Below, piece after piece: positions 13,992 through 48,424 of a stretch of DNA of 64,000 bases; position 1 is the stretch's first letter, and every line of letters begins with the position of its first letter. Both the position numbers and the translations under genes were made by a program. This DNA is from Octopus vulgaris (Eukaryota). The notes beneath the pieces were generated by a model. That model was not told the DNA's origin. It did not search any database and worked only from the letters and a program-made list of their open reading frames with translations. The stretch covers positions 30,070,001-30,134,000 of the forward strand of contig OX597831.1 of the NCBI GenBank assembly GCA_951406725.2. The letters run 5' to 3'.

Positions 13992-14735
13992 TCAGTCTTC
14001 TTCATCTTTCACTTTTGAAGATTTCTTCTTTTTACTTTTCTTTTTTGACGGAGTCTCTGTATTTTCTGTAACATCCACATCAACAGATTCTTTCTTTTTC
14101 TTCCCCTTCAGCGGAGTCGTTGATTCCCCATCTTCCTCTTCAGCACCCAACTTCTTTTTCTTCTTCTTCTTTGATGAAGACTGCGTATTTACAACTTCCT
14201 CCTCCTCTGCTTCATCATCTTCATCGTCATCACCAGATTTCTTCTTCTTCTTCTTCTTTTTCAACACAGGAGTTTCCGTATTTACAACCTCTGCTTCCTC
14301 TTCATCTTCAGCCTTCTTTTTCTTCTTCTTCTTCTTTGAAGATGGAGTTTCTGTATTTACAACTACTACCTCTTCCTTCTCCTCCTCTTCCTCATCACCA
14401 GATTTCTTTTTCTTTTTCTTCTTTTTCTTTGACGGAGTCTCCACCTCATCACCGCCACCATTAACCGTTTCCACCTCCTCCACCACACTTTCATCATGCT
14501 TCTTTTTCTTCTTCTTCTTGCTCTTCTCTGTCACATCAGCCTCAGCTTCTTCATCTGCCAACTTCCTCTTTTTCTTTGAAGAAACCAACTTATCCCCGCC
14601 ACCGCTCTCATCAACAGGAACGCCCACCACAGTGTCGCCATTGACCATAGCATTGTCTGGCAGTTCTACAATTGACAGAGACTTTTTCTTCTTTTTCTTT
14701 TCCTTCTTCTGGTGCTTGACATAAAGATTGGCAAC
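13992..14735 (-). CDS. NOP56: NOP56 exon 10 (K/E-rich C-terminal tail)
   Basis: ttttcag|GTTGCC in phase 0, in frame with ORF 13992..14648; poly-K and poly-E/D blocks; TGA stop. Confidence 0.88.
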   Translation of the reverse strand, partial: VANLYVKHQKKEKKKKKKSLSIVELPDNAMVNGDTVVGVPVDESGGGDKLVSSKKKRKLADEEAEADVTEKSKKKKKKKHDESVVEEVETVNGGGDEVETPSKKKKKKKKKSGDEEEEEKEEVVVVNTETPSSKKKKKKKKAEDEEEAEVVNTETPVLKKKKKKKKSGDDDEDDEAEEEEVVNTQSSSKKKKKKKLGAEEEDGESTTPLKGKKKKESVDVDVTENTETPSKKKSKKKKSSKVKDEED

Positions 14736-17700
14736 CTGAAAATAAACAAAAACTAATTAGACATGACAGCAGTAATTAGATATAACTTATTAACAATTAA
14801 AAAAAGCAATCAGTGAAATGGATAAGACCAGGTTTAATGTTCTCCAACACCAAATATGCAGTAATTAAACATGTAATAATTTGTTCTAATTTTGGCACTA
14901 GGCCAGCAATTTTTTGAGGGGAAGTGGAAGTTAAAAATGACCATTCCGAAATACAACAATGAAGTTAAATTCCATTGAGGTTTATTTTATCAACAGTGAA
15001 AAGATGAAAGGCAAAGACAATCCTGGCAGATATGTATCCAGAACGTAAAGCCTCTAAGTATCATCATCATCATTTAACGTCCGCTTTCCATGCTAGCATG
15101 GGTTGGACGATTTGACTGAGGGCTGGCAAAGCAGATGGCTACACCATGCTCCAATCTGATCTGGCAGTTTCTACAGCTGGATGCCCTTCCTAACGCCAAC
15201 CAATCCGAGAGTATTTTGTCCAAAATATTAACAATTCTGCCAGATTGCTGTCTCGAGATACAGTATAATAATTAAGCAGTAATTAGGTGTGACATAACAA
15301 TTAAACAAACTGGCATTAGTAAAGTCATCCAGCTGTAGAAATCACACCAAGTAGACATGACAAACTGTTTACAAATTAGTAAAGTCACACCAAGTAGACA
15401 TGTCAGTACTAGTAGAACCGTCCAACCCATACTGACATGCAAAAATAGATGTTAAATGATGATAACGATAATGATGTTAACTCTCAGTGAATTACTTTGC
15501 AAAAATATGACCACAGAAGAGGGGGAAGTTAGAGCAAAAGGACAATGTATGATAAGATATGAAAGAACAAGGGAAGGATTTTGCATCACTTTTCCTCAGA
15601 CCCAAAGTGACCACACACTGGCCAACCTTGGTCCCTGGGGTTGACTAACATATGCGAAGTTGCTGTAGCAGCAGACTCCAGCATTCTGAGCGCAAGGATG
15701 GTCTCATCATTGGAGAAGTGAGCAAAACCTAAAAGATCACATTATACAGACACCATGCACTAATATATTGCATCCAATCCAAAGGTTTTTGTTCTTTTTT
15801 TTTAACTCCATATTCACACACTATCATTTATAGCCTTATCTGCCTCGAGTTTCATAATTAAAAATTAATTAAATAAATAAATACTCACCTCAGCCAGTGC
15901 CAGTCTCATGATATCAATGTTCTTCTTTGGCGTGGAACCTGTTTCAAAATACAAGAGCCTGTCTTCTACTTGCTGCCGGAGATGTACACCAATCACAGAA
16001 TTTGGGAAATCTGGAACATAACGAACACCATATTTTCAATACTAACAATGAACGATAAGGTGATGTACATCAATAACAGTAAACCATGAACAATAGGAGG
16101 ATGTACTGTTAAAGCCAGTTAATGAAACAAACTGACAGCACAGTGGTATACACAATTAACATAAACCCATGTGAACACACACAAGATTTGATAGATGACA
16201 AAAGCAGGACGTGCAGCAGGTTCCATAGTCTGGATGCCCTTCCTAATGCCAACCACAGAAGCCATACATAATAAGGGTGTTTAGCAGATGACTCTTTAAT
16301 TTAAGTAAGGAATTGACAAAGGTATCAGTGAATAGGTACAGATTCTCATCATTTAACCCTTTAGTGTTCAGATTACTCTGTTAAATGTAATACTTTTTGA
16401 CTCAAATTGTTTTGAATTAATCATGCATTATCTTATAGCTTTGAGGTTTCAATGATGTGATTGTTTATTTTCAGAATGGCATTGTAGGTTAGGAGTGAGA
16501 GGCTAGATATCGCCAGTTTGAATATAAAACATGTAGAATATATTGGGCCGGATTTGGCCGGTTTAAACACTAAAGGGTTAACGTCCACTTTCCATGCTAG
16601 CATGGGTTGGATGATTTGACCGAGGACTAGCGAACCAGATAGCTGCCCCAGGCTCCAATCCGATCTGGCAGGGTTTCTACAGCTGGATGCCCTTCCTAAT
16701 GCCAACCATTCCGAGTGTAGTGGATGCTTTTACATGCCACCAGCACGAGGGCCAGTCAAGTGGTAATGGCAACGAACACGCTGTAGAAACAATAGACGAA
16801 AATCACACCACAGATGATCAAATTTATTGCTGCAACCCATTAGCACTTACACTGGCTATTACGTGGCCCAAATATCTGTCTTAAGCTCAAACTGGCCACA
16901 TCCAGCATCTCACACCTACCCAACAGTGCTCTTCTAAAAACAGACAATCACATCGAAATGTTGAAGATATATAACAATAAATGATTAATTCAAAACAATG
17001 TTAGGAAGGGCATCCAGCCGTAAAAATCGTGCCAAAACATACACAGAAGTCTGGTGCAGTCTTATGCCTGGCCAGTTCTGGTGAAACTGTACAACTAATA
17101 CCAGCATGGAAGGCAGATGTTAAACAATGGTGTTGATGATTGTGAATAAAGAGCTGTTATGTTTGACTGAGGAATCTGAATTCTAAAAGGTTAAATCAAC
17201 AGAAATATTGCCAAAGCCAGACTTCTTAAGATTATTTGGGCAAGGAAGGGTCTTAGCATTGAAACCCTGTTGAAGGTCTACAAAATTCCTTTATTATTTA
17301 CAAATTAGCTGTATGCTCCAAAAAGAACCAAAACCAAGTCAACCGCAGATGCCATCTTACTACATGACCTTATCATTTACACTTCTATCAAAGCACCACA
17401 ACTACTACTCACCTGCAAAACAATCAACCCTGGTGGCCAGAGAACATTTGTTAGCCAAAAACCGAGATATCCTGCCCTTGTTTTGGGCGCCAGCACGCCC
17501 GATGAATGTGGAGTGAAATATTAGACCATATTTTGGTGTGTTCCCTCGAACCTTCAAAGCTCTGAAAATAGAAAATACATAGAAAGTTCAATCAAAGGAG
17601 TCACAGCAGAGCAAAAATAATGCTTTTACAGAAATTCTACATTTTCAAAACTGTTGTACAATATGGCATGGAAGAGTGAGGGGGGAGGGGGACTGCTGTG

Positions 17701-44791: not shown

Positions 44792-44864
44792 ACCCGGCTA
44801 GCTCAGTCGGTAGAGCACGAGACTCTTAATCTCGGGGTCGTGGGTTCGAGCCCCACGTTGGGTG
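44792..44864 (+). tRNA. tRNA-Lys(CTT), A1:U72 variant
   Basis: 73-nt cloverleaf with CTT anticodon, A and B boxes, TATAAA at about -30 and an oligo-T terminator. Confidence 0.93.
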
Positions 44865-48351: not shown

Positions 48352-48424
48352 ACCCGGCTAGCTCAGTCGGTAGAGCACGAGACTCTTAATCTCGGGGTCG
48401 TGGGTTCGAGCCCCACGTTGGGTG
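48352..48424 (+). tRNA. tRNA-Lys(CTT), A1:U72 variant
   Basis: Identical to the 44792 copy; T-run terminator. Confidence 0.93.

Follow-up and report, generated by a model that had tools for sequence, protein, structure and literature searches.

An intronic box C/D RNA-like unit in octopus NOP56 with a guide to the U6 internal stem-loop and A70 as its likely target

We analyzed a 64,000-nucleotide (nt) stretch of the Octopus vulgaris genome (GenBank assembly GCA_951406725.2, contig OX597831.1, positions 30,070,001 to 30,134,000 of the forward strand), referred to here as the window. Its minus strand carries NOP56, and the last coding intron of this gene contains a sequence with the architecture of a small nucleolar RNA (snoRNA) of the box C/D class and a guide complementary to residues 65-75 of U6 RNA. 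Judging from sequence and predicted pairing, we think it reasonably probable that this intron-encoded RNA directs 2'-O-methylation of U6 at A70.

Host intron and box C/D architecture

The host gene is identified by the exons that flank the unit. The Nop-domain exon matches human NOP56 with an E-value of 6e-25, compared with 4e-11 for NOP58, and the penultimate coding exon matches human NOP56 with an E-value of 2e-8. Contigs from three sequencing runs, which we guess to be RNA, join position 16010 to 17413, and one such spliced contig reaches on into the last exon of NOP56. Since these contigs join NOP56 exons, the boundaries of the host intron are fixed as listed in Table 1. A preliminary description of this DNA had named NOP56 as the host, and both the exon matches and the splicing contigs agree with it. 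All features of the snoRNA-like unit lie on the minus strand, which is the sense strand of the spliced intron in this gene for a snoRNP protein; box C is 178 nt from the donor of the host intron, and box D is 860 nt from the acceptor. The unit has a G+C content of 52%, compared with 35% for the remainder of the intron, and is single-copy genome-wide.

The ends of the unit conform closely to those of a box C/D snoRNA. Box C (AUGAUGA, read from 15710 to 15704) and box D (CUGA, 15599 to 15596) fit RUGAUGA and CUGA perfectly, and a terminal stem of 9 base pairs (bp) with one C-A mismatch closes the unit. The stem runs into a kink-turn geometry, with G15595-C15712 as the last pair, followed by a 3-nt bulge and then the GA pairs. 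Perfect boxes and a long terminal stem had both been reported in the preliminary description, and both are present, in a unit slightly wider than the 15592-15715 given there. When both strands of the window were scanned for C/D box pairs with stems, 17 candidates emerged, among which the NOP56 unit has the best terminal-stem score (9); the runner-up, at 8.5, has an imperfect box C. Two of the other candidates were examined, and in neither does a guide to any of the tested RNAs exceed 9 nt. At gathering level, Rfam reports five transfer RNAs (tRNAs) over the window and nothing at the unit. Vertebrate NOP56 introns hold several snoRNAs, whereas we found no further convincing one in the NOP56 introns within the window.

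Internally, the D' region offers two overlapping boxes, CUCA and CAGA, each matching at three of four positions, and the candidate box C' flanks predicted hairpin 1 on its far side. We considered a guide adjacent to box D and rejected it: this region lies in predicted hairpin 2, and nothing in U6, U2, 18S ribosomal RNA (rRNA) or the large-subunit region is a perfect target for it.

Table 1. Features of the NOP56 locus and of the window (window positions; U6 residues in human numbering)
Feature	Positions	Strand	Remarks
Box C/D snoRNA-like unit including terminal stem	15586..15721	-	Stem pairs 15721-15712 with 15586-15595
Box C	15704..15710	-	AUGAUGA, perfect
Main guide CAUCCUUGCGC, D'-type antisense element	15690..15700	-	11 Watson-Crick pairs with U6 G65-G75
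D' region CUCAGA	15685..15690	-	Two overlapping imperfect D' boxes, CUCA and CAGA; putative register from the +5 rule
Internal hairpin 1, predicted	15652..15684	-	14 bp, directly 3' of D'; pair probabilities 0.89-1.0
Candidate box C'	15645..15651	-	AUGUUAG, degenerate; putative assignment
Second element CAGGGACCA	15629..15637	-	8/9 with U6 57-65; statistically weak, may be an accessory pairing
Internal hairpin 2, predicted	15602..15631	-	12 bp, just 5' of box D; buries the D-adjacent guide region
Box D	15596..15599	-	CUGA, perfect
Host intron, last coding intron of NOP56	14736..15888	-	1153 nt, GT..AG
NOP56 last coding exon	13992..14735	-	Lysine/acidic tail
NOP56 penultimate coding exon	15889..16010	-	Matches human NOP56 389-426
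NOP56 Nop-domain exon	17413..17563	-	Matches human NOP56 337-386
tRNA-Lys(CUU) gene	44792-44864	+	
tRNA-Lys(CUU) gene	48352-48424	+	
tRNA-Lys(CUU) gene	51107-51179	+	
tRNA-Lys(CUU) gene	56336-56408	+	
tRNA-Lys(CUU) gene	57990-58064	-	

The guide to U6 and its likely target nucleotide

As the target RNA we used the genome's own 107-nt U6, numbered as in human; nine of ten fetched U6 copies are identical over residues 57-75, and the remaining copy has one substitution. The preliminary description had read the segment between box C and D' as antisense to U6, and with the species' own U6 it does form 11 uninterrupted Watson-Crick pairs, or 10 (C66-G75) if D' starts at 15690. An antisense element of 10-11 bp just upstream of D' falls within the 9-20 nt of a box C/D guide, and a 10-bp duplex is within the limit cited in a review (PMC8162545). 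Among 2000 dinucleotide shuffles, 3 reached a perfect 11-nt match to U6. Against U2, U4, U5, U6atac, 18S rRNA and the large-subunit region, no perfect match of the RNA exceeds 8 nt. A genome-wide search for box C plus the guide core CATCCTTGC gave 36 matches; just one of these, the NOP56 unit, has a terminal-stem score above 5.5, and it alone extends the complementarity to G65.

The predicted energy of the guide duplex is -17.0 kcal/mol for 10 bp and -20.2 kcal/mol for 11 bp, compared with -2.7 kcal/mol for the U6 stem-loop, and the main guide alone should therefore open the stem-loop. Residues 1-20 of the genome's own U4 pair with U6 56-74; because this is the same stretch of U6, the guide would act on free U6, ahead of U4/U6 annealing. 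We also considered U6atac, a database prediction for the vertebrate RNA SNORD23, and rejected it as a target, as the genome's own U6atac pairs poorly with the RNA (-11 to -13, versus -21.8).

In the mechanism that we propose, the RNA would be freed from the spliced NOP56 intron, with the 9-bp stem and the C/D kink-turn guarding its ends. Pairing of the 10-nt guide, located between box C and D', with C66-G75 of U6, the loop and 3' strand of the stem-loop, would open this structure. The C at 15690 would begin an extended D' box, CUCAGA, so that A70 would lie five pairs upstream, and fibrillarin would be directed to 2'-O-methylate that residue.

The +5 rule allows two registers, and counting on the duplex reproduces the pair of sites given in the preliminary description: A70 with CUCA as D' (15690-15687), and C68 with CAGA (15688-15685). 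We regard A70 as the likelier site. The eight human U6 methyl sites listed in PMC8599867 include A70, which the preliminary description had already called a known 2'-O-methyl site, and exclude C68. Methylation of A70 (Am70) is LARP7-dependent in human cells (PMC13109388). In S. pombe, methylation of U6 A64 is abolished by deletion of sno530 (PMC10484740), and this residue would be the equivalent of A70, judging by A41 and A47, whose numbers also differ by six. A literature search for a reported C68 guide, Drosophila included, found nothing, and among the genome's matches to box C plus guide core there is no other A70 guide of this form.

Alternatively, the same RNA could work in the other register, with CAGA directing methylation of C68, or CUCAGA could work twice, on both A70 and C68. 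Overlapping 4-nt and 6-nt D' boxes have a precedent in yeast: the register is set by the C at the 5' end of D', and one D' of 6 nt can direct marks to two sites spaced two bases apart (PMC5389607); yeast snR48 marks two such sites. The full 11-bp duplex fits the C68 register, in which the pair-forming GA of CAGA is kept and is followed directly by the 14-bp hairpin 1 and then by the C' candidate. Against these points stand the human site list, which lacks C68, and the methylation of A70 in human and of its presumed equivalent in fission yeast, and we consider a C68 register, alone or in addition, unlikely.

The closest parallel to an A70 guide in animals is SNORD23 (Rfam RF00603). Chimeras between SNORD23 and U6 were reported in 2017, when the predicted site, U64, was not methylated (PMC5389715), and in 2025 the register was moved to Am70 (PMC11863803). 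The preliminary description had suggested that SNORD23 resembles the octopus RNA after box C, and indeed box C is followed by ACCAUCCUUGC in the octopus RNA, in human and mouse SNORD23 and in the Rfam consensus; the shared U6 target fixes nine of the 11 bases. Its further suggestion, that the octopus RNA might give the orphan SNORD23 a target, has been overtaken, as a U6 target was already proposed in both papers.

Several points weigh against the proposed reading. The CUCA box lacks the G of the sheared pairs, and CAGA both keeps the GA and abuts hairpin 1, so that geometry favors C68. The C' candidate is degenerate. An Rfam scan does return SNORD23, but the match is local, confined to the 5' 30 nt, and scores 20.1 bits against a gathering threshold of 64; this is background level, as the genome's other C/D RNAs score 19-23 bits with unrelated Rfam families. 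The SNORD23 model finds no match on the 3' 60 nt of the unit, and a search with RF00603 over the whole genome gave no match. The link between SNORD23 and Am70 is itself not backed by a knockdown in PMC11863803, where it is below cut-off in mouse cells and significant in one human data set, and the guides most enriched in the 2025 LARP7 enhanced crosslinking and immunoprecipitation (eCLIP) data of that paper are six known ones, with SNORD23 unnamed in the passage concerned. Finally, we found no homologue beyond very close relatives in one metagenome scan: it yielded 119 loci from 13 of 64 parts of the collection, all 119 were read, and none is snoRNA-like, most being the reverse strand of bacterial groEL.

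The second element, conservation and neighboring genes

The preliminary description assigned the RNA a second U6-complementary element, CAGGGACCA, in the loop of a GUCAACC/GGUUGGC stem, and proposed that the two complementarities together unzip the U6 stem-loop. The element does match U6 57-65 at eight of nine positions, and in the A70 register it and the guide (66-75) tile U6 with neither gap nor overlap. It also has the position and length of an accessory guide, adjacent to the target and between the candidate C' and D, and accessory pairings, of 4-11 bp, typically occur in the unused second guide region (PMC3116282). However, the match is near chance, with 68 of 2000 shuffles doing as well in the exact window and 213 of 2000 in the 5' flank, and its duplex energy is at the shuffle mean (828 and 1065 of 2000 shuffles do as well). 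For this stretch, pairing with U5 (-16.3) is stronger than pairing with U6 (-12.7), and when the guide is forced onto U6 in co-folding, the pairs of the second element reach a probability of 0.08 at most. Nor does the element sit in the loop described: the GUCAACC/GGUUGGC stem could contribute -7.9 kcal/mol, but its probability is about 0.0002 because hairpin 2 (15631-15602; -15.9 kcal/mol) claims the same bases and, in addition, three of the second element, and we rejected the stem for this reason.

The first half of the unzipping proposal stands, in that the guide is aimed at the stem-loop and is predicted to open it alone, while unzipping by two-part pairing is weakly supported. Since the main guide already far outweighs the stem-loop, the second element would be unnecessary for this step; at most it may provide an optional accessory grip on the released U6 5' strand, as in many C/D RNAs. 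A third stretch (15652-15643) pairs with U6 49-58 (10 bp, three of them G-U) and wins in co-folding, but we rejected it as a grip on U6, since it shares bases with the C' candidate and shuffles reach energies just as good. We also rejected the second element as a guide for C62 or C60: the genome has a separate SNORD94-like guide for C62. A search for a C60 guide found none among 13 pattern matches in the genome.

A further alternative is that the RNA acts as a two-handed clamp, in which the guide and the second element bind U6 57-75, the stretch taken up later by U4 stem II, and keep the stem-loop open; the RNA would then serve as a chaperone, and methylation would be of secondary importance or lacking altogether. 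This would make use of the gapless tiling and of the accessory position, and human SNORD23 offers a parallel: an 11-nt stretch 3' of its guide can pair, by eye, with U6 55-65 with one G-U, and the human SNORD23-U6 chimera peak covers U6 57-83. The near-chance match, the unremarkable energy, the stronger pairing with U5, the low co-folding probability and the three bases buried in hairpin 2 all speak against it. The mouse SNORD23 stretch keeps nine of the 11 human pairs but has lost those with U64 and C63 and sits in a hairpin that is also possible in the human RNA (by eye), and the position-equivalent mammalian bases are CUGGG rather than CAGGG. We find a clamp quite improbable. We likewise give little credence to a more elaborate scheme in which the RNA would be a protostome orthologue of SNORD23, its CUCAGA read two ways for A70 and an unrecorded C68, and its second element gripping U6 57-65 so that the stem-loop is held open where U4 binds.

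We next turn to conservation. Four sequencing runs of very close relatives (organisms A-D) list no substitution between 15586 and 15721, compared with 10 differing sites in the flanks, up to about 100-130 nt away on each side; four of these sites form one cluster. This pattern points weakly to constraint on the unit in close relatives, argued from listed substitutions alone and with one of the four runs covering 15614 onward only. Contigs guessed to be RNA cover the host intron at low depth and are uninformative on the mature RNA; a contig in run X18 (15432-15711) stops beside box C, but it is single, with a depth of 2.8, and others run through, and we do not use it as evidence. The degenerate C' and D' boxes and the distance of box D from the 3' splice site (860 nt) would also fit a snoRNA copy that is decaying or not expressed, or an arrangement by chance. 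Yet perfect boxes, stem and guide coincide here in a single-copy unit with no listed substitution in close relatives, and C/D RNAs that lie distally in introns depend on a long external stem; we therefore hold such an origin to be very improbable.

Elsewhere in the window, NOP56 covers about 23 kb (13900-36800, minus strand). Its tail exon is long and internally repeated, and sequencing runs show a 3-nt insertion and joints that skip about 330 nt inside it. Five near-identical tRNA-Lys(CUU) genes lie upstream of NOP56; in four of the five, A replaces G at position 1 and the 3' end is altered.

Comparison with known U6 guides and related RNAs

The preliminary description noted that U6-specific guides bound by LARP7 share a CAGGG motif, an association that we treat as an assumption. 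CAGGG is present at 15637-15633, but it also arises in 1364 of 5000 shuffles (27%). In mouse, it occurs outside the guides of the U6 guides Snord7, 8 and 10, as in the NOP56 RNA, and also in the orphan Snord86; mouse Snord23 does not contain it. We do not take CAGGG as evidence here. Snord86, an orphan hosted by mouse NOP56, carries by eye the CUGACCAGGG stretch of the U6 guide Snord7.

The known LARP7-bound guides SNORD7/snoZ30 (A47), SNORD8/9 (A53), SNORD67 (C60), SNORD94 (C62) and SNORD10 (C77) are, like the octopus RNA, intronic C/D RNAs aimed at U6, and they differ from it in their sites. The octopus genome contains separate RNAs that fit three of these positions. The U6-A47 guide snoZ30 (C26:21836204-21836290, minus strand) scores 59.8 bits, above cut-off. 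A candidate U6-A53 guide, snoU6-53 (C20:47392657-47392754, plus strand), lies under its cut-off with 27.2 of 36 bits; the exon just before it reads like what we take, from its translation, to be ribosomal protein S19. A SNORD94-like guide (C7:128421999 and downstream, minus strand) has a perfect D' whose register fits U6 C62 and scores 37.6 bits (E-value 9e-8), an invertebrate SNORD94 below the Rfam cut-off of 60 bits. These last two counterparts also fall under their cut-offs, as the NOP56 unit does with SNORD23, yet they align over their full length. Since separate guides fit A47, A53 and C62, U6 methylation guides appear to be a working class in this genome. None of the three has CAGGG outside its guide, in contrast to the NOP56 RNA, though one has CAGGA. 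In snoZ30, CAGG faces a complementary CCUG, and by eye both have changed together relative to the Rfam consensus, whereas the CAGGG of the NOP56 RNA has no such partner.

We find it extremely unlikely that the unit derives from a SNORD56 retained in NOP56 whose guide was retargeted from 18S rRNA to U6, and we rejected this descent: the 14 bases before and through box D do equal the Rfam SNORD56 (RF00275) consensus, vertebrate SNORD56 lies in NOP56, and mouse Snord110, 86, 56 and 57 are neighbors on chromosome 2, but the score (19.3 bits, against 36) is background for C/D RNAs, the shared motif is one arm of hairpin 2 here, the unit lacks the 18S C517 D' guide of SNORD56, and true SNORD56-type guides elsewhere in the genome lack the motif. 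Four such intact 18S-C517 guides lie in introns of one gene (C4:161541852-161546868, minus strand), whose exons read like what we assume to be an MTA-family protein, and a further SNORD56-type copy, at C9:60217139, no longer has its stem; none of these was picked up by the Rfam family search. The 18S rRNA gene itself is about 2640 nt long, compared with the 1831 positions of the model, and ribosomal DNA units repeat every 18.3 kb (C20:23977188-24001179).

Methylation of the U6 stem-loop, chiefly at Cm62 and Cm63, primes installation of N2-methylguanosine at G72 (m2G72) in human U6 (PMC13109388). A70 is the one methyl site of this stem-loop whose animal guide is still at the stage of a proposal, namely SNORD23, which has a poor D' box. 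An invertebrate RNA that shares the guide segment and whose D' is close to consensus in the A70 register would give independent comparative support to the assignment of SNORD23 to Am70, and would be a cleaner substrate than SNORD23 for testing it. The literature that we searched, which lacks most subscription journals, holds no report of an invertebrate A70 guide, and searches on mollusc U6 guides returned nothing relevant. U6 A70 is not a new target; a probable invertebrate guide to it in a NOP56 intron is newly seen. No new mechanism is called for, as there are earlier descriptions of U6 guides, of accessory pairing and of D' boxes with two registers.

The second element resembles the extra base-pairing of snR75, snR70 and U16, in which a short second complementarity lies by the target, in the unused guide region and not beside the D box (PMC3116282); those elements are defined by conservation, whereas the one in the NOP56 RNA is a match near chance. 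With SNORD23, the octopus RNA shares ACCAUCCUUGC placed 3-4 nt after box C, with an AC in it that is unpaired with U6, a guide in the D' position, a similar size and, by eye, a hairpin just 5' of box D with a GGCCAGU core and a CUGAGG end; by eye, the 3' halves look colinear. The two differ in that the octopus guide is two pairs longer, the RNA about 20 nt longer, and the D' region near consensus (CUCAGA) rather than CCCC/GUGC-like as in mammalian SNORD23. Human SNORD23, whose sequence we took from the supplement of PMC4914119, is hosted by GLTSCR2 (NOP53) and belongs to a family listed as deuterostome, whereas the octopus host is NOP56; the SNORD56-type copies in this genome show that snoRNAs do change hosts. 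On sequence grounds the RNA appears to work like SNORD23, while membership in that family is not shown. S. pombe sno530 (SPNCRNA.530) shares the presumed target position, a complementarity of 11-12 nt and unusual internal motifs, but has an imperfect C box and no hairpin closing C and D (PMC10484740), where the NOP56 RNA has perfect boxes and a stem. Overall, the octopus RNA is likely a functional counterpart of SNORD23 and sno530, a U6 guide of the ordinary kind that probably addresses A70.

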